From: Gemmatimonadaceae bacterium
GTDB taxonomy: Bacteria; Gemmatimonadota; Gemmatimonadetes; Gemmatimonadales; Gemmatimonadaceae
Direction: 5' to 3'
Length of the DNA stretch: 62,458 bases
Assembly (NCBI GenBank): GCA_041742675.1
Contig: JBGTOG010000366.1
Coordinates: forward strand, 1-62,458
Of this stretch, positions 8,044 to 36,796 are shown in pieces. A program made the position numbers and the translations under genes. Position 1 is the first letter of the stretch, and each line of letters begins with the position of its first letter. A model generated the notes under the pieces. It was not told the DNA's origin. It worked only from the letters and a program-made list of their open reading frames with translations, and did no database searches.

Positions 8044-10869
8044 ATGACCGACCGCATGAAACGCGCACCGACCGTCGCGCCTGCTGAACCACTCGACGAA
8101 CCGCTGCGAGACGACATCCGCCTTCTCGGGCGGTTGCTCGGCGACACACTCCGGGAGCAGGAAGGCGACGAAGTATTCGACATCGTGGAATCCGTGCGCC
8201 GAGCCGCTGTGCGATTTGCGCGCGAAGGCAACGCCGAGGATCGCGAGGCGCTCAATGCCATGCTGCGCGATCTGCCTGAGCGGACGATGCTCTCCGTCGT
8301 GCGCGCATTCACGTATTTCCTGCAGCTCGCCAACATCGCTGAGGACGCGCACCAGATTCGGCAGTATCGAGAAGGTGAGTTGGCTGGCGTAGCGCGTGGT
8401 GAAGGCAGCATGCAGCACGCGCTTGCTGCCGTGCAGCGCGCGCCACGATTCGCCAACGGTGACGCACTGGTGATTCAGGCACTGCGCGAATTCTTTGATA
8501 CGGCACACATTTCACCGGTGCTCACCGCGCATCCCACCGAAGTGCAGCGACAGAGCACACAGCGTGCACTGCAGGCGATCGGCGCCTTGCTCGACCGACG
8601 CGACCGCGTGCATCAAACGCCAGATGAGATGCACCAGATGGACGAGCAGTTGGCGCAACTCGTGCTGACGCTCTGGCATACTCGGATGGTGCGGCCGAAC
8701 CGTCTCCATGTCATCGACGAAGTGAAGAACGGTGTGCACTACTTCGCGCACACGTTTCTCCCTGAGCTGCCGCGCCTGTACGGACAAGTGGAGGATTCAC
8801 TGCGCGAGCGCCTGCCAGAGGAACCGTGGGCGCTCCCGAGTTTTTTTCGGGTCGGCAGCTGGATAGGTGGCGATCGGGACGGCAATCCGTACGTGAACGC
8901 GACGGTGCTCCGGGAAACGATCCGCTTGCAGAGCGGCACGGCGCTCACGTACTACCTCAACGAAGTGCATCTGCTCGGCGAGGAGCTCCCGCTTTCCGAG
9001 CTGCTGTTACCGGTGACACCGGCACTCAAAGCGCTCTCCGATGTGTCGCCTGACAAGCAACCGCAGCGGGTTGATGAACCGTATCGCCGCGCACTGATTG
9101 GCGTGTACGCGCGACTCGCGGCCACGGCGCGTGCGTTGGAAGTCACGACCTCGGCGCGTGTGCCGGTGGCGGAGGTTGCGCCGTATGACAATGTCGCCGC
9201 GTTTGCTCGAGATCTACACGTCGTGCGCGACTCCCTGGAGAGCCACCAGGTCGCGCGACTGGCGTCGGGCCGATTGCGTCGGCTGATCCGGGCGACTGAT
9301 GTGTTTGGTTTTCATCTGGCGCCGCTCGATCTTCGTCAGAACGCTGATGTGCACGAGCGTGTTGCCGACGAGCTGCTGCGATGCGCTGGTGTGTGTGATC
9401 ACTACCTTTCGCTGAGCGAAGCGGCGCGTATTGAGCTGCTGACGAAGGAACTGCAGGGTACGCGACCACTGTACTCCGGCTATCTCGAATACAGCGATGA
9501 AGCACAAAGCGAACTTGATATCGTCTTTGCTGCCGCCGCGCTGCGTGCACGGTACGGTGACGCTGCGTTGCCGCACTACATCATTTCCAAGTGCGATGGT
9601 TTGTCGGACTTGCTGGAAGTCGCGCTGTTGCTCAAGGAAGCGGCGCTGATGACGGGTGGCGGTTCGCCGTCGCTGCGCATGCAGATCATTCCGCTTTTTG
9701 AGACGATTGCAGACCTGCGCAATGCAGCACGTACGATGCGCAGCGCATTCGATCTGCCGCTGTATCGCGCGTTGGTCTCATCACGTGGCGACGTGCACGA
9801 GGTGATGCTCGGCTATTCCGACAGCAACAAGGATGGCGGATTTCTGACGTCCGGGTGGGAGTTGTATCAGGCGGAGCAGGCGCTCATGAAGCTGTTCCGC
9901 GAATACGGTGTGCGGCTGCGTCTCTTTCACGGACGCGGGGGGTCGGTGGGTCGAGGTGGTGGGCCGAGCTATCAGGCGGTGCTCGCGCAGCCAGCTGGCG
10001 TGGTGAACGGACAGATACGTGTGACGGAACAGGGTGAGGTGATCACGTCCAAGTATTCCACGCCGGAAGTGGGTCGCCGCAATCTCGAACGACTGATGTC
10101 GGCAACGGTGGAAGCCACCCTTACCGATCATGAGAACGCTGTCGAATCGGCGGATGGCTTTCATCCGGTGATGGATCGGCTTTCTGCGCTGGCGTTTCGC
10201 GCCTACCGCGATCTGGTGTACGACACGCCCGGATTCACGCAGTATTTCCATGAGTCCACACCGCTGTCGGAGATTGCCACGCTCAACATTGGCAGCCGAC
10301 CGGCCTCACGCGCGTCGTCGGGACGGATTGAGGATTTGCGTGCGATCCCGTGGGTGTTCTCGTGGGCGCAGTGCCGCGTACTGCTGCCGGGTTGGTACGG
10401 CTTTGGCACTGCGGTTGATGCGTGGCTCAAGGAAACACCGGACGGGTTGCCAACGCTGCAACGCATGGCGCAGATATGGCCGTTCTTCCGCATGTTGCTT
10501 TCGAACATGGATATGGTGCTTGGCAAATCCGATATGGCCGTTGCCTCGCGCTATGCGGAACTCGTGTCCGATGTGGCACTACGCGAGAAGATCTTCGGGA
10601 CGATTCACGCGGAGTGGGAGCGCACACGCAACGCATTGCTTGCGATCACCGGTCAGGCGCAACTGCACGGAGAGAACGCGGATCTTGAACGCTCCTTCGC
10701 GAACCGTGTGCCGTACATGGATCCGCTCAATCATTTGCAGATTGCGCTATTGCGCCGGCATCGTGAAGGCGGGCCGCACGCCGCGGGGGATCAACCGGCA
10801 AGTCGCGTAGAGCGCGGAATCCACCTTACGATTAACGGGATTTCGGCGGGTTTGCGCAACAGCGGGTGA
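8044..10869 (+). CDS. ppc: phosphoenolpyruvate carboxylase
   Basis: The ORF is open from 7972, but the ATG at 8044 (MTDRMKRAP) avoids overlap with the kinase gene. Motifs are VLTAHPTEVQRQS, GYSDSNKDGGFLTS, FHGRGGSVGRGGGP and the C-terminal ...GLRNSG. Confidence 0.95.
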   Translation: MTDRMKRAPTVAPAEPLDEPLRDDIRLLGRLLGDTLREQEGDEVFDIVESVRRAAVRFAREGNAEDREALNAMLRDLPERTMLSVVRAFTYFLQLANIAEDAHQIRQYREGELAGVARGEGSMQHALAAVQRAPRFANGDALVIQALREFFDTAHISPVLTAHPTEVQRQSTQRALQAIGALLDRRDRVHQTPDEMHQMDEQLAQLVLTLWHTRMVRPNRLHVIDEVKNGVHYFAHTFLPELPRLYGQVEDSLRERLPEEPWALPSFFRVGSWIGGDRDGNPYVNATVLRETIRLQSGTALTYYLNEVHLLGEELPLSELLLPVTPALKALSDVSPDKQPQRVDEPYRRALIGVYARLAATARALEVTTSARVPVAEVAPYDNVAAFARDLHVVRDSLESHQVARLASGRLRRLIRATDVFGFHLAPLDLRQNADVHERVADELLRCAGVCDHYLSLSEAARIELLTKELQGTRPLYSGYLEYSDEAQSELDIVFAAAALRARYGDAALPHYIISKCDGLSDLLEVALLLKEAALMTGGGSPSLRMQIIPLFETIADLRNAARTMRSAFDLPLYRALVSSRGDVHEVMLGYSDSNKDGGFLTSGWELYQAEQALMKLFREYGVRLRLFHGRGGSVGRGGGPSYQAVLAQPAGVVNGQIRVTEQGEVITSKYSTPEVGRRNLERLMSATVEATLTDHENAVESADGFHPVMDRLSALAFRAYRDLVYDTPGFTQYFHESTPLSEIATLNIGSRPASRASSGRIEDLRAIPWVFSWAQCRVLLPGWYGFGTAVDAWLKETPDGLPTLQRMAQIWPFFRMLLSNMDMVLGKSDMAVASRYAELVSDVALREKIFGTIHAEWERTRNALLAITGQAQLHGENADLERSFANRVPYMDPLNHLQIALLRRHREGGPHAAGDQPASRVERGIHLTINGISAGLRNSG

Positions 10870-11035
10870 TACTCTGGTCGAGCGCACGGGCGGGAGTACG
10901 GACACTGGAGCGCTCCAAGGTGGCACCGCAGGGTGCGCCCCTACAGATTCGATGCAGTTGCGCTAGCCATTCTGTTTTCGTGCGCACGGCAACTGCCGCA
11001 TTCCGCGCGCCAGTGTTTCCCTTCCGTCCGCCGCC

Positions 11036-12445
11036 ATGTACGTGACTGGTCATACCGTTTCCCGAGTGGCTGCGGCCCTCTGCATTGCCGGCCTCTTGGC
11101 GGTCGCGCCGAATCTGTGCGCCCAGTCACCCGTGCGCGTGTCCGAGGCGTCAGCGCTACTGCCCTGGTCGGAACAAATTGCGGTCCGCGAAGCCTGGCTG
11201 GCGAAGCGTCATGCGATGCTGCTGCCCATGATGCGTCGGCACAACATCGGCATGTGGCTTGTGGTGAATGAAGAGTTTCACGATGATCCTCTCACGCAGT
11301 ACATCGCTCCCCCTCGCCCGTACACCGGCAATCGTGACATTTTCGTGTTTGTGGACGGCGGTGACGCGGGTCTCAAGAAGTACGCGATCACGGGCTACAC
11401 CGAAGAAAACCTGACACGCTTTTTCGACGCGCCCAGTGACGAGCCGCGTCCGCCGGCGGCGACGCTTCGGGAGCTGTACCAGACGTGGAAGCCAGCGACG
11501 ATTGGACTTGGCATTCGCGGTCGACGCGGGCAGACGCGGTCGCTCGGCTTCGATGCGCATCGCTTTCTTGCGGAGACGCTGGGCGAGGAGGCCGAAGCAA
11601 AGTTTACGAGCGCCAGCGACCTGATCGAGGAGTATCTCGACACACGGTTGCCCGACGAGCTGGAGCATTACCGCACCGCGGTGGCGGTGACCGAAGCGAT
11701 CGTGAAGCGCGCCCTTTCGAATGATGTGATTACTCCGGGCCGGACCACGGTCGGCGACGTTCGCAACGCGCTGTTCGACATGTTGTGGGCCGCAGGCGTG
11801 CGAACGTGGTTTCAGCCGGATCTCCGGGTGCAGCGAGCCGGCGCCGATATCGCGACGTCGCGCGGATTCCTGGCCGTGGCTCCTGAAAGCACCACCATAG
11901 TGCCCGGTGACGTCGTGCACATCGACTTCGGGATCACGTACATGGGATTTGACACCGACTGGCAGAAGCTGGCGTATGTACTCAAGGCGGGTGAGACCGA
12001 AGCACCGGCCGGACTGCGTCAGGCGATGGCCAACAGCAACGCACTGCAGGATGCACTCATGCTGCGGCACGCGCGTCCGGGGGTGACGGCGGGGAATGTG
12101 TTCAATGCGACGATGGCGGAGATGCGCGAACGTGGAATCGAGGCGATGATTTATTCACACCCCATTGGTGCGCAGGGTCACGGTCTTGGTGCGTCGATCG
12201 ACTTTCGCAGTGCGCTGCGCAGCGATACGACCACGCAGAACTCTCGGCTGCGCGCCGGTTCCTACATGTCGATTGAGCTCAACACGGCGACGCCGGTCCC
12301 TGAATGGGATGGCAAGAAGCTTTTTGTGATGTTCGAAGACGACGCCCACCTCACCGACAGCGGCTATCGATTCTTCCGTCCACGACAGGAACAGTTCTAC
12401 CTGATTCGCGCCTCGCCGGATGCCCTCGAGCGGGGTTCGCCGTGA
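11036..12445 (+). CDS. secreted M24-family metallopeptidase (Xaa-Pro aminopeptidase-like)
   Basis: 469-aa ORF with signal-like N-terminus [21 protein letters not shown]. Pita-bread-fold motifs are [31 protein letters not shown] and SIELN. Confidence 0.8.
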
Positions 12446-12699
12446 CCGCTTCTGCAAACCCCAATCCGCTGCACGGTGTCACACTGCAGCACATGATCGA
12501 GCACCTCGTTGAGCGATACGGATGGGATGGACTGGGCACCCGCATCAGTATTCGCTGTTTCACGCATGATCCCAGCGTCCCATCGTCGCTCAAGTTCCTT
12601 CGCAAAACACCGTGGGCGCGAGCGAAGGTTGAATCACTCTACACACATTCCGTCGCACACCCGCGCAAGTCGCAGGCGGCGTCGTTGCCGTCTGTCTGA
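12442..12699 (+). CDS. VF530/DUF2132-family small protein
   Basis: The GTG at 12442 overlaps the upstream stop (GTGA). The translation [60 protein letters not shown] matches the DUF2132 pattern. Confidence 0.7.
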
Positions 12700-12769
12700 T
12701 CAAGAATCGCTCTTCAGGCGTCATTACCGTCCGCCTGATCATGTATCGCTCTTCACTTGTGAGCACACC

Positions 12770-22449: not shown

Positions 22450-22572
22450 TCAAATGGGGACTAAGCGGCTGCCGCTACCTCCAGTGCCATGCGGAATGGT
22501 AGCGCCTGTTCGCCCGCAGCGAATGACGTGCGGGCGCTTGACGGCCGCAACCTCAGGTCAGTATCTGTCTGC

Positions 22573-23094
22573 ATGCGCATCGTGGGCGGAAAACACAAAG
22601 GTCGGCATCTCACATCACCCAACGATTTTCGCGTGCGCCCTACCGCGGAACATGTGCGAGCCGCCCTGCTCGTTCTGCTCGCGGCGGATCTCGACAAGGC
22701 GTCAGTGCTTGACCTGTTCGCCGGTACCGGTGCGCTTGGTCTTGAAGCGCTCTCCCGGGGCGCACGTCGCTGCGACTTTGTAGAAACGCGTCCGGCCAGC
22801 CTGCACGCGCTCAAGGCAAACGTCGCCGCGCTTGGCTATCGCGAGCGTACCCGGATCTTCAAAAAAGACGCGCTACCATTTGCGGCAGCGCTCAGCGAAG
22901 GCGCCTATGATCTGGCCTTTGTGGACCCGCCGTACCAGTCGCGCATGCTCGATCGCGTAATCGAAGGCTGGCAAATCTCACGATTTGCGCGTGTGCTGGC
23001 GGTAGAACATGCGGGGGACCACGTGCTACCCGCCGGCGGCAGGTTGCACAGCTTTGAGGACACCGCGGTCACCATCTACCGGCTTTCCAACTAG
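22573..23094 (+). CDS. rsmD: 16S rRNA (guanine966-N2)-methyltransferase
   Basis: The ATG at 22573 gives MRIVGGKHKGRHLTSP. Motifs are PTAEHVRAALL, DLFAGTGALGLEALSRGA and FVDPPYQS. Confidence 0.85.
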   Translation: MRIVGGKHKGRHLTSPNDFRVRPTAEHVRAALLVLLAADLDKASVLDLFAGTGALGLEALSRGARRCDFVETRPASLHALKANVAALGYRERTRIFKKDALPFAAALSEGAYDLAFVDPPYQSRMLDRVIEGWQISRFARVLAVEHAGDHVLPAGGRLHSFEDTAVTIYRLSN

Positions 23095-24882
23095 GACGGG
23101 CTCACCAGCCGTCCAGCCCTGCTCGACCAGAGCGTCAAGCAGCGCGAGCACACGCGTGCGGTCCACATGGACGCCGAGCACCAGCAGATCTCCCGGTGCG
23201 GCCCAGAGGAGCGCTTGTACGACTCCGTCGAACTCCGTTGACGCTTCGCTGACAATCGATTCGGGGGCACCCGCGGCCTGCAGTCCTTCACGCAGCTGCG
23301 CGGGAACCGCCGCTGCCTCTCGTCCGCGTAGCATGTGCGGCAGATGCTTGATGATGATCCGGTCGAACTTCGTGGTATGCCAGGCCGCGGCACCGAGTGC
23401 GCGCAATTGTTCATCGTCTCTGTTACCGGCCTGGCCCAGGAGCAACAGGCGACGTGCGGCTGGCATTGACGCTGCGGTGGCACACAGCGCTGTCATGCCC
23501 GCCGGATTGTGCGCGTAGTCCACCAGCACCGTGACGCCGCCGACGCGCCGGACCATCAGGCGACCAGCGTTGTCGCCGTCGTTCGCCCCGAACGTCGTGA
23601 GCACGCTCTCGATCGCGACGCGCGGAACGGCAGCCGTCAGCGCCGCGAGAGCCGCTGCCGTTGCGTTAGCGATGTTATGCAGTGCGGAACCGCCAGCAGT
23701 CAGTGGAAAAGATGCGACATCGCCGACGGAGTGCCACGCGCCATGCTGCGCGAGTTGCAGTTGTCCGGCCCGCACACGCGCGCCGAGTCCATGCTCGCTG
23801 ACGCCGTGCGTGACGCGGAGATCGGCTTCGCTACCGGGCTGTGCGCTGGTCGAGAACCAGACCACAGCGACCGCCGGATCGATGGGGAGCGTTCGCAGCG
23901 TGACATCGTCGGCGTTGAGGACCAGCACACCGCGTGACGCGCTCACCGCGTGGGCAACAATGGCTTTTGCGTCCGCAAGGTCCGCCAGCGATTCCACGCC
24001 GTACTCGCCGAAGTGATCGTCGGAGATGTTCGTGATCACCGCGACATCAGCACGCGTGAGGGCGAGCCCGCGTCGCAGCAGTCCACCACGAGCCGTTTCA
24101 AGAACGGCCGCCTGTACCGACGTGTCACGCAGCACACGTCGAGCGCCGGCTGGGCCGGTGTAGTCACCGGCTTCGAGTTGCACGGGCGGCTCGCCTCCTG
24201 CCACGAACACGCCGTCGCTGCAGCTCCATCCGGCGACATGTCCGCTCGCACGAAACATGGAGGCAATCAACCGTGTGGTGGTGGTCTTGCCATTGGAACC
24301 GGTGACCAGCACGGTGGGCACATTCGTTCGCTGCGACCAGTCCACGGCGGTCGCATCCGGCGCGCCATCAATCGGCCATGATTCGCCGCCGGATCCACTC
24401 CCAACGGTCACGGACTCGTCATCAACGCAGGCGGTGAGGCCGCGGAGATGGGCCTCGTAGACCAGCGCTGCAGCGGGTGCGAGACGCGTCCGTTCCTGAT
24501 GCCACTGCTGGTGCAGTGCACGAAGCATCGCGTCGTCGCTGACGCGCTCCGCCCGGCACCACGCGAGCTCATTCAGCGACGTGGCCGTCATCAGCCCGTC
24601 TAGCGGCGCGCGCACAAAGAGCTGCGCTGACGAGTCTCGCAGGCGTATGACCGTGTGCACATCGCTCCACGCGAGTGCGTCGCAGAGCTCGCTCACATGC
24701 GCTTGCCAAGCTGCGATGTGCGCAGGCGTCGCGGCTCGCGGGTCGATCACAAGTACGGCGCCTGGCGAGGCGTCGAAGAGGTTCGCGCCGGTCAGGCGGC
24801 GTGAATCGAGTATGGAGGGCGACGGATACTCCGGCGCGTCAGGTGCAGATGGCGCGACGGAATCCGTCTGGGGATCAGTCAC
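23026..24882 (-). CDS. cyanophycin-synthetase paralogue lacking the ATP-grasp core (CphA N-domain-like plus Mur-ligase-like M domain)
   Basis: 618-aa ORF. Its GTG start overlaps the cphA stop (GTGACTGA). The M domain is collinear with cphA: VTGSNGKTTTTRL, AVLETARGGLLRRG, NISDDHFG, LNADD, VDYAHNP and GNRDDEQ. Confidence 0.8.
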   Translation of the reverse strand: MTDPQTDSVAPSAPDAPEYPSPSILDSRRLTGANLFDASPGAVLVIDPRAATPAHIAAWQAHVSELCDALAWSDVHTVIRLRDSSAQLFVRAPLDGLMTATSLNELAWCRAERVSDDAMLRALHQQWHQERTRLAPAAALVYEAHLRGLTACVDDESVTVGSGSGGESWPIDGAPDATAVDWSQRTNVPTVLVTGSNGKTTTTRLIASMFRASGHVAGWSCSDGVFVAGGEPPVQLEAGDYTGPAGARRVLRDTSVQAAVLETARGGLLRRGLALTRADVAVITNISDDHFGEYGVESLADLADAKAIVAHAVSASRGVLVLNADDVTLRTLPIDPAVAVVWFSTSAQPGSEADLRVTHGVSEHGLGARVRAGQLQLAQHGAWHSVGDVASFPLTAGGSALHNIANATAAALAALTAAVPRVAIESVLTTFGANDGDNAGRLMVRRVGGVTVLVDYAHNPAGMTALCATAASMPAARRLLLLGQAGNRDDEQLRALGAAAWHTTKFDRIIIKHLPHMLRGREAAAVPAQLREGLQAAGAPESIVSEASTEFDGVVQALLWAAPGDLLVLGVHVDRTRVLALLDALVEQGWTAGEPVLVGKPVDGDRGVLKAVQPAAGG

Positions 24883-27742
24883 TGGCTTCCGGCGCCAGAA
24901 TTACGCCGCGCTCATCACGCAGGAACATCGATTCGTCGGTAAACGACGGCCAATGTGTCACGATGTCTGTGACCGGTGGCTCGGGCACTGGGGCCGGCAC
25001 GGCGGGCTCCTGATCGTCCGCAGGCGCCGTGTCCTGCACTTCGGCTCGTGGTACCGCACGCGCGGCGCGCGGTGCGGGAACCAGGCTGGTATCGAGTTCA
25101 GGGCGGAAGTTCACGATCTGCTTCCAGCCGCGCGCCAGCGCATCAGCGAAGATCAGCACCAGGTCGCCGGGCTGTGCCATGACCAGTGCGCGTTCGATCG
25201 CCTGTTGTTCGTCCACAATCGTCGTGATGCGATCGGCGCTGATCCCACGAACCTGCAACTCCTCCACGAGCATGCGTGGCACCTCGTCTTCACCGCGCCC
25301 GCGCAGCGAATCATCGCGGCGACAGATGTAGTGGTCAAAGTCGGCTGCGGCTGCGGCTGCGGCGATTGCACGAATGTCTTCGTCTCGTCGGTCACCCGGT
25401 GCCGAGAGCACGCACAGACGACGTCCTGCTGTCGACAGTCGATTCACCAGCTGACAGAGCGCCGCCACCGCGTGCGCATTGTGCCCGTAGTCGAACAGCA
25501 CCTTGAACGGATGCTCATCGTACACATTGAGTCGTCCGGGTGCCTGAAAGAACGTGGTGTCAAAGGTGCGCAGGCCGTGTCGGATGTCTTCGAGGCGCAC
25601 GCCCATGGAGAACGCCATCGCGGCGGCGAACATCGCGTTCTGCACATTGAAGGTGGCGCGCCCCTCAAGCGTGGCCGGAATGAGGTGCGTCCAGAGCAGC
25701 GGGATGTGTGCGCCACGATCATAGATCGTAATCATCTGGCCATTCACCCCTTCCTCCAGCGCGATCGCGCGTCCACCGGCACGCACGTGTTCACGCACCA
25801 GCTCATGCTGGGGATCGAGCGTCACATAACACACGTGCTTCGCCTGCGTGTATGCTGCCATGCGCAACGTGAGCGGATCATCGGCGTTGAGCACCGCGGT
25901 ATCCGTTGCAATCTCCACGACGGTGCGCTTGACCTCGGCCAGCTGCTCCAGCGTTTCAATACCCTTTTGCCCAAGGTGATCGGGCTGGATGTTGAGAACT
26001 GCGCCTACATCCACGTGTCGCATGGCCATGCCGCTCCGCAGCAGACCACCGCGCGCCGTCTCAAGCACGGCCACCTCGACGGCCGGATCGCCAAGCACAA
26101 TGCGCGCGGATGTGGGACCGGTCATGTCACCTTCTACCGTACGCTGACCATCGACGTACACACCGTCCGTGGTGGTGAGGCCAACCCGCCGCCCCGCCAG
26201 CTTGTGGATGTGCGCGAGCAATCGCGCGGTTGTGGTCTTGCCGTTGGTTCCCGTAAGCGCCGCGATTGGCACGCGACTGGGGGCGTCCTTCGGAAACAGC
26301 ATCTCAATCACTTTGCCCGCGACATCACGCGGCCGCCCTTCACTCGGTGCGCTGTGCATGCGAAATCCGGGCGCCGCGTTCACTTCACAAATTGCCCCGC
26401 CAATATCGTTGTACGACTGTGTGATATCCGGTGTCAGGAAATCCACGCCACCAACATCCAGACCGATCGCCTTGATGGCGCGCACAGCCATCTCGGCGTT
26501 GTCCGGATGCACGACATCGGTCATGTCGACAGCAGTACCGCCGGTGGACAGATTCGCCGTAAGTCGCAGGTACACGGTCTCGCCTGCGACCGGCACGCTG
26601 TCCGCCGTCAGCCCCAGCTTCTCCAACAGACCAAGTGCTTGCGCGTCGAGGTCCAGCTGCGTGAGCACCTTCTCGTGTCCGATACCACGCCGTGGATCGC
26701 GGTTCACTTCGGCCACCAGTTCGGCAATGCTCTGCACGCCGTCACCCACAACCTTGCCCGGCTCACGTTTAGAGACCGCGACCAGCTCGCCGTTGACGAC
26801 CAGCATGCGGTGATCATGGCCGATGATGAAGCTCTCCACGATCACGCTGCGGGAGATCTCCTGAGCACGGGCAAAACCAGCTTTCACTTCGTCTGGCGTC
26901 GCCAGATTGATGGAGACGCCGCGCCCGTGATTGCCGTTGTACGGCTTGGTAACCACCGGATAGCCGATGCGCTCTGCCGCGGAGACCGCGCGATCGGCCG
27001 ACTGCACGAGACGTTGTCTCGGTACCGGCAATCCGAGATTCGCCAGAATGCGATTGGTTTCTTCCTTGTCGCTGGCCAGTTCAACAGCGATGTGGGATGT
27101 CTGACCGGTGATGGTGGCCTGAATGCGCTGCTGGTGGCACCCGTAGCCAAGCTGGATGAGACTCTGTTCGTTGAGACGCAGCCACGGAATGCCGCGCGCT
27201 TCGGCGGCGTGCACGATGCTGGCGGTACTGGGACCCAGGGCGCGTCTCTGCGTATAGCGAATAAACGCATCGCGCCGCGCTTCAAGATCAAACGAAGGGT
27301 CCACTTCCGCGGGACGCAGCTCGGCCGGCAACAGGTGATGCAGGAGATCAAGCGCGACATCGGCCGCTTCAATCCCGACGTCTTCCTGTTCGTACTCAAA
27401 CACCACATCGTACACACCAGACGTTTCCGTCTCGCGCGTTTTGCCAAATGTGACTTTGACGCCGGCGACATTTTGCAGCTCGATCGCGACATGCTCCAGC
27501 ACGTGCCCGAGCCAGGTGCCTTCGTCTTCTGTCATACGCCGCACAAAACCGCCCGCTTCGCCGTACGAGCAACCATGGTCGCGCAGTCCAGGCAGCGCGG
27601 TCAGCAGCGACTGAATGAAGGCATCGCCAAGTCGACGTGTGGGCCACGCTTCCAGCGGTCCGAGATCAAGGACCAGCCGAATGACCGGAAAGTGTGCGTA
27701 GTGACTGGGCCCAACGTAAATGGAACGATCCAGAATCTGCAT
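24875..27742 (-). CDS. cphA: cyanophycin synthetase (CphA1-type: N domain, ATP-grasp G domain, Mur-ligase-like M domain)
   Basis: 955-aa ORF. The N-terminus MQILDRSIYVGPSHYAHFPVIRLVLDLG is CphA-typical. The ATP-grasp part is YPVVTKPYNGNHGRGV...CEVNAAPGFRMH. M-domain motifs are LTGTNGKTTTARL, VLETARGGLLRSG and FDYGHNAHA. Confidence 0.95.
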   Translation of the reverse strand: MQILDRSIYVGPSHYAHFPVIRLVLDLGPLEAWPTRRLGDAFIQSLLTALPGLRDHGCSYGEAGGFVRRMTEDEGTWLGHVLEHVAIELQNVAGVKVTFGKTRETETSGVYDVVFEYEQEDVGIEAADVALDLLHHLLPAELRPAEVDPSFDLEARRDAFIRYTQRRALGPSTASIVHAAEARGIPWLRLNEQSLIQLGYGCHQQRIQATITGQTSHIAVELASDKEETNRILANLGLPVPRQRLVQSADRAVSAAERIGYPVVTKPYNGNHGRGVSINLATPDEVKAGFARAQEISRSVIVESFIIGHDHRMLVVNGELVAVSKREPGKVVGDGVQSIAELVAEVNRDPRRGIGHEKVLTQLDLDAQALGLLEKLGLTADSVPVAGETVYLRLTANLSTGGTAVDMTDVVHPDNAEMAVRAIKAIGLDVGGVDFLTPDITQSYNDIGGAICEVNAAPGFRMHSAPSEGRPRDVAGKVIEMLFPKDAPSRVPIAALTGTNGKTTTARLLAHIHKLAGRRVGLTTTDGVYVDGQRTVEGDMTGPTSARIVLGDPAVEVAVLETARGGLLRSGMAMRHVDVGAVLNIQPDHLGQKGIETLEQLAEVKRTVVEIATDTAVLNADDPLTLRMAAYTQAKHVCYVTLDPQHELVREHVRAGGRAIALEEGVNGQMITIYDRGAHIPLLWTHLIPATLEGRATFNVQNAMFAAAMAFSMGVRLEDIRHGLRTFDTTFFQAPGRLNVYDEHPFKVLFDYGHNAHAVAALCQLVNRLSTAGRRLCVLSAPGDRRDEDIRAIAAAAAAADFDHYICRRDDSLRGRGEDEVPRMLVEELQVRGISADRITTIVDEQQAIERALVMAQPGDLVLIFADALARGWKQIVNFRPELDTSLVPAPRAARAVPRAEVQDTAPADDQEPAVPAPVPEPPVTDIVTHWPSFTDESMFLRDERGVILAPEASD

Positions 27743-27760
27743 GCGGCGCGTGAGCCCAGG

Positions 27761-28573
27761 CTAGTCGTGCGTGACAAAGGACTCAACCGGCTGCGCCCGT
27801 CGAGTGTGCAGATTGTAGGTGGAGCGTGGACCCAGCACATGGACGACGACATCACTCATGGTGATAGCGTCACCAACAGCGGCTTCGGCAATGTTGGTGA
27901 ATCCCACACGCGACGGATCAACAATCGTGATCGCGCCCGTGCCGAGCACCTCAAGCGTTTCGTCGGGACCAATGAACGCGGCGGTGTCTTCATCAACACC
28001 GAGTCCAATACAAAAAGGATTGTACGAAAGCGCGGTGAGCAAGCGGCCGAGCCGGTCACGCTGACGAAAGTGCTGATCCACAATCACGCGATTGGTCAGT
28101 CCCAGACCGGCGCACATGGTGACCATACCGGCGCGTGGCGTGCTTCCTTCTTCGCCGAAGGCGATCATGTGCTCACTGAGATACGCCGCGCCGGCACTGG
28201 TGCCGGCAATGTGTACGCCTTCCGCATTGCGCACGCGCAGCAGTTTCGCCACAGGCGTTCCACCCAGAATCGTGGACAGCTTGAGTTGATTGCCGCCGGT
28301 AAGAAAGACGCCGGTCGCGCTGGCGAGCCATTCCAGCCAATCGCGGTCATCACAATCACTGCGCCGCTCAAAGCCAAGCGCCTTGGCCTGCGTGACTCCG
28401 CGGCGCTGAAACATGCGCTCGTAGTACGTGCCCATGTCCGGCTCGCTCGATGCCGTGGGGATCACGGCAATGCGTGCGTGTGCGCCACCGCTCAGTGCGA
28501 TGAAGCGATCCAGAATGGCATCGGTGAGCAGCTTGCCCCCAATGGGAATGATCCAGCCGCGTGCTGTGGTCAT
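27761..28573 (-). CDS. cphB: cyanophycinase (peptidase S51), no signal peptide
   Basis: 270-aa ORF located 18 nt upstream of cphA. Motifs are IIPIGGK, FLTGGNQ, the GTSAGAA nucleophile motif and VDQHFRQRDRLGRL. Confidence 0.92.
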   Translation of the reverse strand: MTTARGWIIPIGGKLLTDAILDRFIALSGGAHARIAVIPTASSEPDMGTYYERMFQRRGVTQAKALGFERRSDCDDRDWLEWLASATGVFLTGGNQLKLSTILGGTPVAKLLRVRNAEGVHIAGTSAGAAYLSEHMIAFGEEGSTPRAGMVTMCAGLGLTNRVIVDQHFRQRDRLGRLLTALSYNPFCIGLGVDEDTAAFIGPDETLEVLGTGAITIVDPSRVGFTNIAEAAVGDAITMSDVVVHVLGPRSTYNLHTRRAQPVESFVTHD

Positions 28574-28709
28574 GTGCGTGTTCCTCTCGATAGGCCAACC
28601 GCCCGGACGTCGGGCCGCTGGACCGGTGTGCCTGAGCCCTCAAAGCTAACGCTTCAGGGGGTGCTGAGGTAATGTTGGCCAACTCTCACTGACTTCAGAT
28701 GCTGACACC

Positions 28710-29873
28710 ATGTTGACCCTGCTCCGCCATGCCAACGTCTTCGCGCCCGCACCACTCGGCGAGTGTGATGTCCTTGTGGGCGGCGGCTCCGTGCTCTATG
28801 TGGGCCCGTCGATCGGCGCATTGCCCGCGGCGCTCAGTGTGCAGGTGGTGGAGTGCGGCGGTCGACGGATCATACCAGGACTGATCGATGGCCACGTGCA
28901 CCTGACGGGTGGTGGTGGCGAAGCGGGCGCGGCTACCCGGGTACCGGCACCATTCCTGTCGCGCTACACGATGGGCGGCGTGACCAGTGTCGTCGGAGTG
29001 TTGGGCACCGACGATGTCACACGCACGACAGGCGAACTGGTGGTGCAGGCGCGATCACTGATTGACGAAGGGCTCTCTGCGTGGTGCCACACGGGGGGCT
29101 ATCACGTGCCCCTGACCACGCTGACCGGCAGTGTGCGCGGAGACATCACACATATCGATCGCATCATTGGTGTCGGCGAGTTGGCGATCAGCGATCATCG
29201 GTCCAGTCAGCCATCGTGTCAGGAGCTGCTACGCATTGCCGCTGACGCCCACGTGGGCGGACTCATGACGGGCAAGGCGGGCATCGTGCACTTGCACGTC
29301 GGTGACGGCGTACGGGGACTGTCGATGGTGCGCGAGGCGCTGGCGAACAGTGAGCTGCCGCCGCGCGTGTTCAATCCAACGCACGTGAACCGACGGAAGG
29401 CGCTGTTCGAAGAAGCGCTGGCGTTGACCGCGAAGGGATGCGTGGTTGACATCACGGCGTTCCCGGTGGCCGAGGACGAGGATGCCTGGAGTGCTCCGGA
29501 TGCCGTTGAGCGTGCGATCAGTGCCGACGTGGATATGCAGCGCGTGACGGTGAGCAGCGATGGCGGTGGATGCCTGCCCGAGTTTGATGCGGATGGGCGT
29601 GTGGCGCAAATGGACGTGGGAGATGTTGGTGCGATGCTGCAAACGCTTGGAGCACTGCTGAATCGCGGTCACGCACTCGAGCTGGTGCTGCCGTGCTTCA
29701 CGCACAACGTTGCTCGACTGCTGCGACTTCCGGGCAAGGGGGAAGTGCGCGTTGGGGCAGACGCTGATTTGATCGTGCTGGACGACGCGCACCGCGCGTA
29801 CGATGTCATGGCGCGCGGCGTCTGGCATGTGCAGGGCGGTGTGGCCTGCCGACGCGGCACGTTCGAACCATGA
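28710..29873 (+). CDS. iadA: isoaspartyl (beta-aspartyl) dipeptidase
   Basis: 387-aa ORF collinear with E. coli IadA as I recall it. Matching motifs are GLIDGHVHLTGGGGEAG, VTSVVGVLGTDD, ISDHRSSQPS, PTHVNRR, VSSDGGG and RRGTFEP. Confidence 0.93.
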   Translation: MLTLLRHANVFAPAPLGECDVLVGGGSVLYVGPSIGALPAALSVQVVECGGRRIIPGLIDGHVHLTGGGGEAGAATRVPAPFLSRYTMGGVTSVVGVLGTDDVTRTTGELVVQARSLIDEGLSAWCHTGGYHVPLTTLTGSVRGDITHIDRIIGVGELAISDHRSSQPSCQELLRIAADAHVGGLMTGKAGIVHLHVGDGVRGLSMVREALANSELPPRVFNPTHVNRRKALFEEALALTAKGCVVDITAFPVAEDEDAWSAPDAVERAISADVDMQRVTVSSDGGGCLPEFDADGRVAQMDVGDVGAMLQTLGALLNRGHALELVLPCFTHNVARLLRLPGKGEVRVGADADLIVLDDAHRAYDVMARGVWHVQGGVACRRGTFEP

Positions 29874-31183
29874 CGAACGCGCTCGATGCCTTCTGGATGC
29901 CCTTCACGCCCAACCGCGCGTTCAAGCGTGCGCCTCGGATGCTCGCCAGTGCCAGTGGCATGTACTACACCGATGTGGACGGGCGCCAGATCCTCGACGG
30001 TACGGCTGGCCTCTGGTGCGTGAACGCCGGGCACTGTCGTCGCCCGATCGTGGAGGCGATTCAACAGGCCGCGGCCACACTCGATTACGCGCCGGGCTTC
30101 AACATGGCACATCCGGCGGCGTTTGCGCTCGCGGAACGCCTTTCTGAAGTGACGCCACCCAATCTGGACCGTGTCTTCTTCACCAACTCGGGATCAGAGG
30201 CGGTTGATTCGGCGCTCAAGATCGTGCTCGCATATCACTCGGCGCGTGGCGATACGACGCGTCGACGGTTCATCGGCCGACTGCGCGGATATCACGGTGT
30301 GGGTTTTGGTGGCATTTCCGTGGGCGGTATTGAGAACAATCGCCGCACCTTCGCACACCATCTCTTGCCACACACTGACGCGCACCTTCCGGCGACGCAC
30401 GGGTTGCGCGAGAATCTGTTTTCGCGTGGACAGCCGAGTGCCGGTGCGCACCTCGCCGACGCGCTCGAACAACTCGTCGCCGAGCACGGTGGCGAGACGA
30501 TTGCAGCGGTAATTGTTGAACCGCTGGCGGGTTCTGCCGGTGTACTCGTTCCGCCGATGGGCTATCTCGAACGACTGCGGGCGATTTGTGATCAGCACGG
30601 CATTCTGCTGATTTTCGACGAAGTCATTACCGGCTTTGGGCGGCTCGGAGCGGCGTTTGGTGCGCAGCGATTTGGTGTGACGCCAGACATGATCACCGTC
30701 GCAAAAGGCATAACCAACGGCGCCGTCCCCATGGGCGCTGTGATCTCGCATCGCGCAATTCATGACACGATTGTGAGCGGTACCACACACGGCATCGAGT
30801 TCTTTCACGGCTATACGTACTCTGGCCATCCGCTGGCGTGTGCTGCCGCGATGGCGACGCTGGATGTGTATCGCGATGACGCGTTGTTCGAGCGCGCGAC
30901 GGAGTTGGCCCCATACTGGGAAAACGCGGTGCATTCACTGCGCGATGCACCGTGGGTAGCAGATATTCGCAATCTCGGTCTGGTAGCAGGGATCGAACTC
31001 GAGTCACGAACGAATGAGCCAGGCGCGCGTGGTGCTGCGGTCATGGCGGAATCCTTTCGCCGCGGTTCACTGGTTCGTGTGACGGCCGACACCATTGCGC
31101 TCTCGCCGCCACTGATTGTCGAGCGAACGCAGATCGATCAGCTCGTGGAGACTTTGAGCTCGGTGCTGCACGAACTCTCGTAA
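29870..31183 (+). CDS. class-III PLP aminotransferase (omega-amino acid:pyruvate / beta-alanine-pyruvate transaminase-like)
   Basis: 437-aa ORF whose ATG overlaps the iadA stop (ATGA at 29870-29873). Motifs are FWMPFTPNR, GLWCVNAGH, LIFDEVITGFGRLG and the ITVAKGITNG PLP-lysine. Confidence 0.88.
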   Translation: MTNALDAFWMPFTPNRAFKRAPRMLASASGMYYTDVDGRQILDGTAGLWCVNAGHCRRPIVEAIQQAAATLDYAPGFNMAHPAAFALAERLSEVTPPNLDRVFFTNSGSEAVDSALKIVLAYHSARGDTTRRRFIGRLRGYHGVGFGGISVGGIENNRRTFAHHLLPHTDAHLPATHGLRENLFSRGQPSAGAHLADALEQLVAEHGGETIAAVIVEPLAGSAGVLVPPMGYLERLRAICDQHGILLIFDEVITGFGRLGAAFGAQRFGVTPDMITVAKGITNGAVPMGAVISHRAIHDTIVSGTTHGIEFFHGYTYSGHPLACAAAMATLDVYRDDALFERATELAPYWENAVHSLRDAPWVADIRNLGLVAGIELESRTNEPGARGAAVMAESFRRGSLVRVTADTIALSPPLIVERTQIDQLVETLSSVLHELS

Positions 31184-31396
31184 GTGTGTCGCGCACAACA
31201 CGATCCTGCACCGTCGACGGCCTTCCGAAGCCATCAGTACCGGGTCCCGCGCGACCCGAAAGTTGGCCCGATTTCCGGCTACAGAGTCAGTGTCGTACAA
31301 CCGACACTCTCATCCAGCGGTCATACCATGCAGCGCCGACCTGCTGAAGCGATGCTGCGGTGATATACAGTTTCTGTTACGGGATCGGAGCGCCAT

Positions 31397-32434
31397 ATGT
31401 CTGCAAATCGCACCAACGAAGCCGAGCAATATGCGCGGCTGATCAGCCCTGTTCGTCTCGCCGCGCTGGAGGCCACCGGTCTGCTTGATGGACAGGCAAA
31501 CGACGTGTTGGATCGTGTAGCGCGCATGGTGACGCGACTGGTGGGCGCGCCAACGAGTCTGGTGTCACTGGTTGGTGGCGCGAGGCAGCACTTTCCGGGA
31601 ATGGTCGGGTTGACGGGTTCAGCGAGTGCGACGCGGGAGACCATGCTGTCACATTCCTACTGCCAATACGTCGTCATTCGAAACGCGCCGCTCGTCATCC
31701 CTGATGCGGCGCAGGAACCACTGGTACGGGACAATCCGGCGCGCACCGAATCCAATATCGCCGCGTATGTGGGTGTGCCACTGCGCACATCGGAAGGGGA
31801 AGTGCTTGGCGCGCTGTGTGCCATCAACTCCTCGCCCACGCCGTGGAGCAGTGAACAGATCGAGACGCTCACAGAGCTGGCGACGATGGCGATGTCAGAA
31901 ATTCAGTTGCGGTCCACGGCCCGCGCGTTGCTGCTGAGCAACCGACGACTTGCCCAGCAGCTCGTGCGCGACCCGGTAACCGGACTCCGCAACAGGTCGG
32001 GGTTTCTGGCGGGCGCGCGTCAGCTGGTCAGTGATGCCATGCGCAGCCGTTCATCGATGTTGATGTGCGTGCTGAATCTGAACGACTTCTATCACATCAA
32101 TGCCACCATGGGCCACGATGTTGGTGATGCCGCGCTGGTAGAGGTCGCGGCCCTGCTTGAGGGAGCGCTGCGCGATGCGGATGTGGTGGCACGGATCGGA
32201 GCTGACGACTTCGTCGCACTGATTGCCAATGCGTCCGCATCGGATACGCCGTTCGTCACCGCTCGGCTCGCCGCTTCCTTCGACGTGCACAACGCTATGC
32301 CGAACCGGGAGTTCTTGCTGGATGCGAGTCTTGGGTTCGCCGAGTGGACGGCCGCCAAGCCAATGAGTATAACGTCGTTGTTGCAGCGCGCTGAGGCGGC
32401 GATGCGCCAGAGTCGCCGCCGCCGAGCGGCCTGA
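31397..32434 (+). CDS. GAF-GGDEF protein with degenerate active-site motif (GADDF) and intact RxxD I-site
   Basis: 345-aa ORF with GGAG 7 nt upstream of the ATG. The N-terminal part is GAF-like (IAAYVGVPLRTSEGEVLGALCAI). The GGDEF domain includes DPVTGLRNRSGF, LNLNDFYHINATMGHDVGD and LRDADVVARIGADDF. Confidence 0.85.
   Translation: MSANRTNEAEQYARLISPVRLAALEATGLLDGQANDVLDRVARMVTRLVGAPTSLVSLVGGARQHFPGMVGLTGSASATRETMLSHSYCQYVVIRNAPLVIPDAAQEPLVRDNPARTESNIAAYVGVPLRTSEGEVLGALCAINSSPTPWSSEQIETLTELATMAMSEIQLRSTARALLLSNRRLAQQLVRDPVTGLRNRSGFLAGARQLVSDAMRSRSSMLMCVLNLNDFYHINATMGHDVGDAALVEVAALLEGALRDADVVARIGADDFVALIANASASDTPFVTARLAASFDVHNAMPNREFLLDASLGFAEWTAAKPMSITSLLQRAEAAMRQSRRRRAA

Positions 32435-35404: not shown

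Positions 35405-36796
<1,392 letters not shown>

Follow-up and report, generated by a model that had tools for sequence, protein, structure and literature searches.

Why would a bacterium that encodes a complete cyanophycin synthetase, CphA1, carry directly behind it a second synthetase-like gene too short for the whole enzyme? The question is raised by a contig of a Gemmatimonadaceae bacterium (GenBank assembly GCA_041742675.1, contig JBGTOG010000366.1), whose 62,458 nt, positions 1 to 62,458 of the forward strand, are called the window here. A cyanophycin locus was read at 23026-31183 of the window, with the table of open reading frames (ORFs) and the gene junctions taken directly from the sequence. 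On the minus strand it carries cphB, cphA1 and, as the last gene of the cphB-cphA1-paralogue operon, a G-less cphA paralogue ('N-M protein') of 618 aa at 23026-24882; iadA and a class-III omega-aminotransferase gene run divergently on the plus strand. CphA1 has an N domain, an ATP-grasp G domain and a MurE-like ligase M domain. The paralogue keeps an N domain and a complete M domain, with no more than a short stub of the G domain between them, and is a CphA that lost its ATP-grasp core. At a probability of roughly 0.55, we favour the reading that it acts beside CphA1 as a stand-alone, ATP-dependent side-chain ligase that adds Arg to Asp-terminated cyanophycin, and that the aminotransferase is a recent neighbour.

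The architecture was established by profile, sequence and structure comparison. Pfam finds Mur_ligase_M (PF08245, 77 bits) and Mur_ligase_C (PF02875, 51 bits) on the paralogue and nothing else: ATP-grasp and PF18921 gave no match, and the first ~185 residues match no Pfam family. The protein aligns to positions 475-848 only of the TIGR02068 model, at 319 bits and thus under the cut-off of 850, and no NCBIfam model reaches its cut-off on it. With the G domain missing and the model match partial, the protein is not a full-length CphA1, and its description as a truncated cphA paralogue in a first-pass annotation of this DNA stands. By BLASTP, residues 186-569 align with residues 489-864 of the CphA1 of the window (36% identity, E = 1e-49). 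An HMM search against the PDB matched the M domain alone, with CphA1 M domains at E = 1e-97 and MurE at 1e-24. This M domain, Mcore plus Mlid, covers residues ~186-572 (23167..24327, minus strand), and the N-terminal module lies upstream of it at residues ~22-185 (24328..24819, minus strand).

The N-terminal module is conserved among homologues (ILDSRRLtGpN..., APLDGLmTAT, E.AW, DDE..SvGsG). An AlphaFold2 (AF2) model of the paralogue, made with 72 homologues, reached pLDDT 93 and pTM 0.92, and a Foldseek search of the PDB with this model returned the CphA1 structures 7WAE, 7LGJ and 7LG5 as best matches. The alignments run over ~885 columns, with a TM score of 0.75 when normalised to the query of 618 residues; the N and M domains thus superpose and the G domain appears as a gap. 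Local hhalign comparisons pair paralogue residues 23-61 with CphA1 2-35 and residues 126-166 with CphA1 162-202, matches that are collinear but weak, and global hhalign of the N domain gave a low probability. CphA1 162-202 is the first strand-helix of the G domain, of which a stub of ~40 residues is kept. The module may therefore be described as a diverged CphA N domain followed by a G-domain stub, the N-domain assignment being drawn mainly from the AF2 model and Foldseek. The Cx19HxxEH peptidase motif is not conserved in the module in the homologue alignment.

The M domain is apparently catalytically intact. Residues K199, T200, S222, E262, D289, H290, K306 and R519-G520-R521 are invariant in 72 homologues, and the Mur ligase signature is present in full, with G195-x-N-G-K-T-T, E262, D289-H290, K306 and D455-Y-A-H-N all invariant. 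K199/T200/S222/E262 correspond to K499/T500/T522/E558 of TeCphA1, which are ATP and Mg ligands (PMC9427784), and D289-H290 to D585/H586 of SuCphA1, the mutation of which kills the M site (PMC9262961). In a joint M-domain alignment of 50 paralogues and 18 CphA1, with conservation defined as at least 90%, 62 positions have the same residue conserved in both groups and five are conserved but different.

Those differences bear on whether the paralogue is an active ligase for some other amino acid, such as Lys, ornithine, citrulline or Glu, giving cyanophycin with mixed side chains. CphA1 enzymes themselves are known to accept Lys and other amino acids to a small extent, and the M-domain lineage of the paralogue is ancient and separate. 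Conserved family-specific residues, W219/C221, F291/E293/Y294, N487/D489 and H572 versus D867, lie by the catalytic motifs. However, when eight MurE sequences are aligned, the amino-acid specificity motif DNPR falls on LRGR, which is invariant in both the paralogue and CphA1 families, and the five differing positions stand against 62 shared ones; nor is there an Arg-bound CphA1 structure to tell which residues matter. An argument for a specificity switch was downgraded because DNPR aligns to the shared LRGR, and we consider this alternative somewhat unlikely. That argument had taken GDRRD / GNRDD for the counterpart of MurE DNPR, an assignment rejected in favour of LRGR.

Is the short gene a regular companion of cphA1, or an accident of this contig? 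Loci were collected from a one-genome-per-species scan, contig look-ups and a plasmid search, followed by tblastn and blastp with the five window proteins. The genome scan used general Mur-ligase peptide patterns and under-sampled Gemmatimonadota, so the counts are lower bounds and give no estimate of frequency. In at least 18 loci the paralogue comes immediately after cphA1 (18/18 tandem loci), and cphB precedes the pair in every locus whose contig reaches that far. Seven of these are in Gemmatimonadota (the window, L001, L024, L082, L168, L169 and L170). Gammaproteobacterial examples (L002-L009 and L013) come from Lysobacter sp. Root916, Aquimonas, Luteimonas lutimaris, Lysobacteraceae, Steroidobacteraceae and other metagenome-assembled genomes (MAGs), and alphaproteobacterial ones from megaplasmids of Ruegeria sp. 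THAF33 (L166) and of a Shinella-like organism labelled Roseateles sp. XES5 (L165). The record of the latter (NZ_CP084754.1) is flagged UNVERIFIED_ORG 'Roseateles sp. XES5'; since the CphA1 of the window matches L165 and a Shinella zoogloeoides plasmid CphA1 with near-equal identity and score, the organism label may be wrong.

At the junction itself, GTGACTGA, the GTG start of the paralogue overlaps the TGA stop of cphA1. The same overlap is kept in the window, L082, L168 and L001, and gaps of 0-14 nt occur at the six other junctions among the ten that were read. The paralogue's N-terminal 185 residues retrieve 362 representative clusters (50% identity; 1.84 billion proteins); among the best 150 of the 362, the long proteins measure ~550-760 aa, mostly 555-660, and none is CphA1-sized. 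The paralogue defines a distinct family of ~560-660 aa with at least 362 clusters at 50% identity.

These data also speak to the plainest alternative, that the gene encodes an ordinary Mur-ligase-family enzyme, with cell wall or folate-type chemistry, standing beside cphA1 by chance, or that it is a decaying duplicate. Automated naming leans that way, as Pfam shows Mur ligase domains alone and RefSeq calls the tandem paralogues just 'Mur ligase family protein'. The closest solved relatives are nevertheless CphA1 M domains by a wide margin in E value over MurE, the N-terminal fold is that of the CphA N domain, and the gene keeps its place next to cphA1 strictly across phyla. Hundreds of clusters retain the length and the active site, so the gene is no pseudogene, and we regard both forms of this alternative as extremely improbable.

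A rough neighbour-joining (NJ) tree of M domains groups the tandem paralogues in a single clade with a long branch. Its sister group is a second set of short N+M proteins, and both sets lie outside the CphA1 M domains as a whole. Within the tandem clade the branching pattern mirrors that of the partner CphA1s. Together with the recurrence of the pair in at least 18 loci, this agrees with the functional tie between the truncated paralogue and the locus that had been claimed in the first-pass annotation. When the window is compared with L169/L170, the paralogue is 47-52% identical, CphA1 83%, CphB 80% and IadA 70%. The evolutionarily conserved unit is cphB-cphA1-paralogue, to which a divergent iadA is added in Gemmatimonadaceae.

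The second class of short CphA-like proteins (~530-560 aa) combines an M domain with a short N-terminus of the CphA type (VELRVLDGPN...). It was found in L014-L017, L019-L021 and L023, from Methylomirabilota, Chloroflexota, Actinomycetota and other MAGs. Its gene is convergent to cphA1, not in tandem with it, in the five loci with a visible neighbour (L014, L015, L016, L020 and L023), and the two are on opposite strands in L017 and L021 also. A further G-less form is a 724-aa 'Mur ligase family protein' on plasmid 3 of Deinococcus deserti VCD115 (L167 5173-7347, WP_012695043.1), with a clearly CphA1-like N domain, the start of a G domain and an M domain; cphA is not adjacent and lies on other plasmids of the strain. 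In the NJ tree this form and that of a Sarcina MAG (L022) branch inside CphA1, which suggests that the two are independent and more recent losses of the G domain.

CphA1 of the tandem loci has a peculiarity of its own. In the window its C terminus carries, after a disordered Pro/Ala-rich linker, the motif FLRDERGVILAPEASD (residues ~939-955, 24878..24928, minus strand), with Asp as the last residue. The consensus in tandem-partnered CphA1 is a Pro/Ala-rich linker and then (L/V)xRDERGxxxAxE..xD, again with Asp last. Among 58 Gemmatimonadota CphA1, R945, G946 and the terminal D955 never vary, and the motif is present in 12/12 tandem-partnered CphA1 inspected elsewhere (L002-L009, L013, L082, L165 and L166), proteobacterial ones included. 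It was not found in 10 CphA1 of other cassette types, nor in the CphA1 chains of the PDB. AF2 places a beta-hairpin at 940-949 (pLDDT ~83) after a disordered stretch at 883-937, in a model of the whole CphA1 that is poor (pLDDT 69, pTM 0.45).

The tail bears on whether the paralogue is mainly structural or regulatory, binding CphA1 (perhaps by its tail) or granules and so modulating synthesis, priming or granule formation. The motif tracks the tandem partnership in every case examined, and a hairpin on a disordered linker is what one would expect of a docking element. Translational coupling suggests that the paralogue is produced in step with CphA1, with which it co-evolves despite its fast rate, and there is a precedent in CphA2, which keeps an inactive M domain for architecture (PMC10273328). 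On the other hand, the tail may merely mark that clade of CphA1, and invariance of all ATP-, Mg- and catalysis-related residues in 72 sequences is unexpected of a purely structural protein. We therefore hold a mainly structural or regulatory role to be quite unlikely.

A related speculation combines the two elements. Both active sites of CphA1 act on a C-terminal Asp, so the tail could be a docking element or a self-primer, and the paralogue and the tail (disordered linker, RDERG hairpin and C-terminal Asp) might together form a two-component system new for cyanophycin, an idea to which we assign little weight. One version would have the tail dock the paralogue onto CphA1 to give a hetero-complex with extra M sites. 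In a radical version, by analogy with glycogenin, the terminal Asp of the tail would be arginylated and extended, so that the synthetase would prime itself and the polymer would be covalently attached to the enzyme.

We return to the reading of the paralogue as a side-chain ligase. In solved CphA1 structures, the N domain packed against the M domain forms the surface that holds Asp-terminated cyanophycin for arginylation. Since the paralogue retains an N domain and an intact M domain, we infer that it would bind cyanophycin chains ending in unmodified Asp, through the cleft between N domain and Mcore. Made in step with CphA1 by way of the overlapping stop and start, it would then attach Arg (or Lys) to the beta-carboxyl of this terminal Asp at the expense of ATP, in trans to CphA1. 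The gain may be extra M-site capacity, or the rescue of Asp-terminated intermediates that CphA1 has released and that its G site cannot extend.

Several points weigh against this reading. CphA1 already has an intact M domain, which leaves the benefit of a second one unexplained. For the N domain, homology is supported by the match in fold and by profile matches that are weak (hhalign probability 29%). The paralogue evolves far faster than its neighbours, which could mean relaxed or changed function. Finally, it departs from CphA1 at GWSCSDG/GxTTTDG, DHFGEYG/DHLGxxG, GNRDD/GDRRD and H572/D867, leaving room for a different substrate.

The aminotransferase gene (29870-31183, plus strand, 437 aa) poses the converse question, of whether tight coupling in one contig is enough to assign a gene to the pathway. 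An ATGA overlap joins iadA to it. The protein scores 703 bits on NF052567, AptA (cut-off 500), and 301 bits on PF00202, the class-III PLP fold; it is of the AptA / beta-alanine-pyruvate transaminase type, and JGI names its close homologues beta-alanine--pyruvate transaminase. A role in the cyanophycin pathway would consist in channelling Asp or Arg released through IadA (via beta-alanine, ornithine or putrescine) to central metabolism. The overlap with iadA implies co-transcription and probably co-translation, and argG (argininosuccinate synthase, 35405-36745, minus strand, opposite to the aminotransferase gene) lies ~4 kb downstream. Enzymes from the catabolism of Arg, ornithine and putrescine are found among the class-III omega-transaminases.

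Comparison with relatives counts against such a role. The five-gene order is repeated in L082 only, a MAG contig with a CphA1 of 90% identity, and even there a gap of 35 nt separates iadA from the aminotransferase gene, with no overlap. In L169 and L170 iadA is divergent from cphB-cphA1-paralogue, and genes other than the aminotransferase follow it; the L168 contig stops within iadA and is uninformative on the point. Aminotransferase orthologues in Gemmatimonadaceae are 70-77% identical. Among 82 orthologue loci, namely L083 (74%), L084 (71%) and 80 metagenome loci (60-71%), none carries cph or iadA. Their commonest neighbour is a CoA-acylating methylmalonate-semialdehyde dehydrogenase (15/82 loci; TIGR01722, 661 bits), so the usual role is probably in beta-amino-acid catabolism (beta-alanine or beta-aminoisobutyrate). 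Lrp-type regulators and putrescine-pathway-like genes also recur beside the orthologues, and in L084 a Peptidase_S58 (DmpA/BapA-type) gene was seen next to one (10001-12711).

Linkage to the pathway is thus limited to the closest lineage, the usual partner is a (methyl)malonate-semialdehyde dehydrogenase and the equivalog match is AptA, all of which make a pathway role unlikely. The gene is best read, from its profile match and gene neighbourhoods, as a beta-alanine / omega-amino-acid:pyruvate transaminase, placed behind iadA recently in this lineage. It is predicted to be co-expressed with iadA here but not to belong to cyanophycin metabolism in general. It may help locally to dispose of carbon and nitrogen from the Asp or Arg of cyanophycin, a role for which conservation gives no support. 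The first-pass annotation had taken translational coupling as an argument that both accessory genes serve the same pathway, and had made conservation of the five-gene arrangement in relatives the test. For the paralogue the argument stands, on synteny and co-evolution; for the aminotransferase it falls on L169, L170 and the 82 orthologue loci. By that test the arrangement of five fails, being found again in L082 only, and the three- or four-gene unit passes; recurrent linkage places the paralogue in the conserved cyanophycin gene set and leaves the aminotransferase outside it. An overlap of start and stop codons is not enough by itself to place the aminotransferase in the pathway.

The remaining genes are the known ones, and CphA1, CphB and IadA each score above the NCBIfam equivalog cut-off, in line with their first-pass assignments. 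The gene cphA1 (24875-27742, minus strand, 955 aa) scores 1129 bits on TIGR02068 (cut-off 850, model positions 1-860) and 1138 bits on NF010623, and all three parts of the enzyme were found in its product, PF18921, ATP-grasp and Mur_ligase_M/C. GNHGRG (H272), the P-loop GTNGKTT, LETARGG and D588-H589 are all there and do not vary among 58 homologues. The N-domain peptidase motif is represented by C58...H80-V-L-E83-H84, with a spacing of 21 versus 19 in Cx19HxxEH. Judged by these motifs, as defined for the G site, the M site and Cx19HxxEH in PMC9262961 and PMC9427784, the CphA1 of the window is predicted to have all three known active sites: G, which adds Asp to the backbone, M, which adds Arg to the side chain, and the primer-generating HxxEH peptidase of the N domain. 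Its identity across Gemmatimonadota is 72-91%.

The first gene of the operon, cphB (27761-28573, minus strand, 270 aa), encodes a cyanophycinase of peptidase family S51 (TIGR02069, 231 bits, cut-off 127; also PF03575). On the plus strand, iadA (28710-29873, 387 aa) encodes an isoaspartyl (beta-aspartyl) dipeptidase of the amidohydrolase fold (TIGR01975, 396 bits, cut-off 331, model positions 2-389). Its orthologues are divergent from cphB in L082, L168, L169 and L170 and co-directional in L003, L004 and L024. By its gene content the region is predicted to be a complete cyanophycin storage and mobilisation locus covering the full known cycle (PMC10206079), and the compact unit of synthesis, depolymerisation and dipeptide hydrolysis that had been proposed is indeed there. 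A different arrangement was seen on plasmids of Deinococcus taeanensis, Pelagibacterium, Rhizobium bangladeshense and Sphingobium (L171-L174), which carry a compact cphA-iaaA-cphB cassette with overlapping genes, lacking the G-less paralogue, and with a CphA1 that lacks the RDERG tail.

The TAG stop of cphB is followed by 18 nt and then by the ATG of cphA1, and 136 nt (28574-28709) separate the divergent starts of cphB and iadA. The five ORFs and the four junctions (18 nt, GTGACTGA, 136 nt and ATGA) reproduce the first-pass reading exactly. That reading also held the 136-nt spacer to be a shared control region. The spacer exists, but its conserved element is tied to the cphB operon. This promoter-like element, TTACC-N16-CGTTAGCTT, lies upstream of cphB at 28643..28672 (minus strand), and the sequence and spacing of its two blocks are invariant upstream of cphB in six Gemmatimonadota loci. 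One of the six is L001, which has no divergent iadA, and for this reason the element is assigned to the cphB operon, of which (cphB-cphA1-paralogue) it is probably the promoter or operator, as judged from conservation. A generic scan for sigma-70 promoters and terminators gave nothing above shuffled expectation and did not detect TTACC-N16-CGTTAGCTT, and Rfam had no match in 22500-31800.

The flanking genes are unrelated to the locus: on one side they encode a TonB-dependent-receptor-like protein and RsmD, on the other side a GAF-GGDEF protein, HemA and ferrochelatase. The unit is bounded at ~23.0-31.2 kb. The GAF-GGDEF diguanylate cyclase gene (31397-32434, plus strand) begins 213 nt past the aminotransferase gene. 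The RsmD-like methyltransferase ORF (22489-23094, plus strand) has a convergent overlap of 69 nt with the 3' end of the paralogue gene; the last ~20 residues of the paralogue, which are overlapped, are unconserved and of low pLDDT, so one or the other ORF may end earlier in reality. An ORF of 1363 aa at 24581-28672 (plus strand), antisense to cphA1 and cphB, has no independent support and is a spurious long ORF of the type expected in DNA of 63% G+C. Top matches outside the window are strong (paralogue, E = 1e-205; aminotransferase, E = 1.8e-225; CphA1, 1949 bits), so these are homology-supported genes and not chance ORFs. All three proteins have their nearest homologues in Gemmatimonadaceae, Gemmatimonas and other Gemmatimonadota, and the host is therefore non-cyanobacterial, as had been supposed.

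What does the short gene add to the cyanophycin systems already described? Synthesis is now explained by two enzymes, CphA1 (N + G + M), which uses Asp and Arg, and CphA2 (N + G + dead M), which uses dipeptides. A conserved N + M form strictly beside cphA1 in several phyla implies a non-cyanobacterial step beyond the textbook cycle, for which trans side-chain loading, repair of Asp-terminated chains, altered side-chain composition and a new mode of priming or assembly are candidates. The paralogue could matter for the yield, solubility and composition of cyanophycin in biotechnological production, and its role is directly testable with existing assays that use synthetic (beta-Asp-Arg)n-Asp substrates and M-dead CphA1 mutants. 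We rate the locus type and the cphA1, cphB and iadA identifications as already known or ordinary, and the N+M protein as a third architectural class in the cyanophycin synthetase family. No description of a G-less CphA paralogue was found in a search of openly accessible papers, and an earlier mention may exist elsewhere; the nearest related remark is that Tetrasphaera MAGs carry an expressed 'shorter copy' of cphA (PMC10687191).

The locus as such has close precedents. Sharon and Schmeing found cphA1, cphB and iadA within 5 kb in 37 of the 231 genomes having all three (PMC10206079), and the window shows the same clustering. The G-less paralogue and the aminotransferase fall outside the scope of that survey, whose text names neither Mur ligases nor Gemmatimonadota and uses the word 'aminotransferase' once. 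With AptA of Caulobacter and beta-alanine-pyruvate transaminase, the aminotransferase shares the equivalog match; the gene in the window overlaps iadA, whereas orthologues elsewhere stand beside methylmalonate-semialdehyde dehydrogenase, Lrp-type regulators or unrelated genes.

With MurE and other Mur ligases, the paralogue shares the fold and, by homology, probably the ATP-dependent acyl-phosphate chemistry, together with the P-loop, the Mg-binding Glu, the DH pair, the equivalent of the carbamylated Lys and DxAHNP. It differs in that a CphA-type N domain replaces the UDP-MurNAc-binding N-terminal domain, in LRGR for DNPR, and in its genomic context, that of cyanophycin instead of the dcw cluster. 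With CphA1 (Synechocystis SuCphA1, 7LG5; Trichodesmium TeCphA1, 7WAE) it shares the N-domain fold, a complete M domain, the catalytic residues and the packing of N against M. In contrast to CphA1 it lacks the ATP-grasp G domain save for the stub of ~40 residues and so cannot extend the Asp backbone, its N domain lacks Cx19HxxEH, and its M domain belongs to a separate, fast-evolving clade.

The cyanobacterial beta-Asp-Arg polymerase CphA2 (PMC10273328) is the nearest parallel in design, since it too is a CphA1 derivative of ~600-640 aa with an N domain and one catalytic domain, in genomes that have cphA1. We rejected the label CphA2 for the paralogue, which has no G domain beyond the stub and a full-length M domain with invariant catalytic residues, and the mechanism of dipeptide polymerisation is impossible for it. 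CphA2 is cyanobacterial, whereas the paralogue family was found in Gemmatimonadota and Proteobacteria, and short forms related to it in Chloroflexota, Actinomycetota and Methylomirabilota. In CphA2 the G domain is active, and the M domain is truncated and inactive (PMC10273328); the paralogue, with no G domain and an intact M domain, is its functional mirror image.

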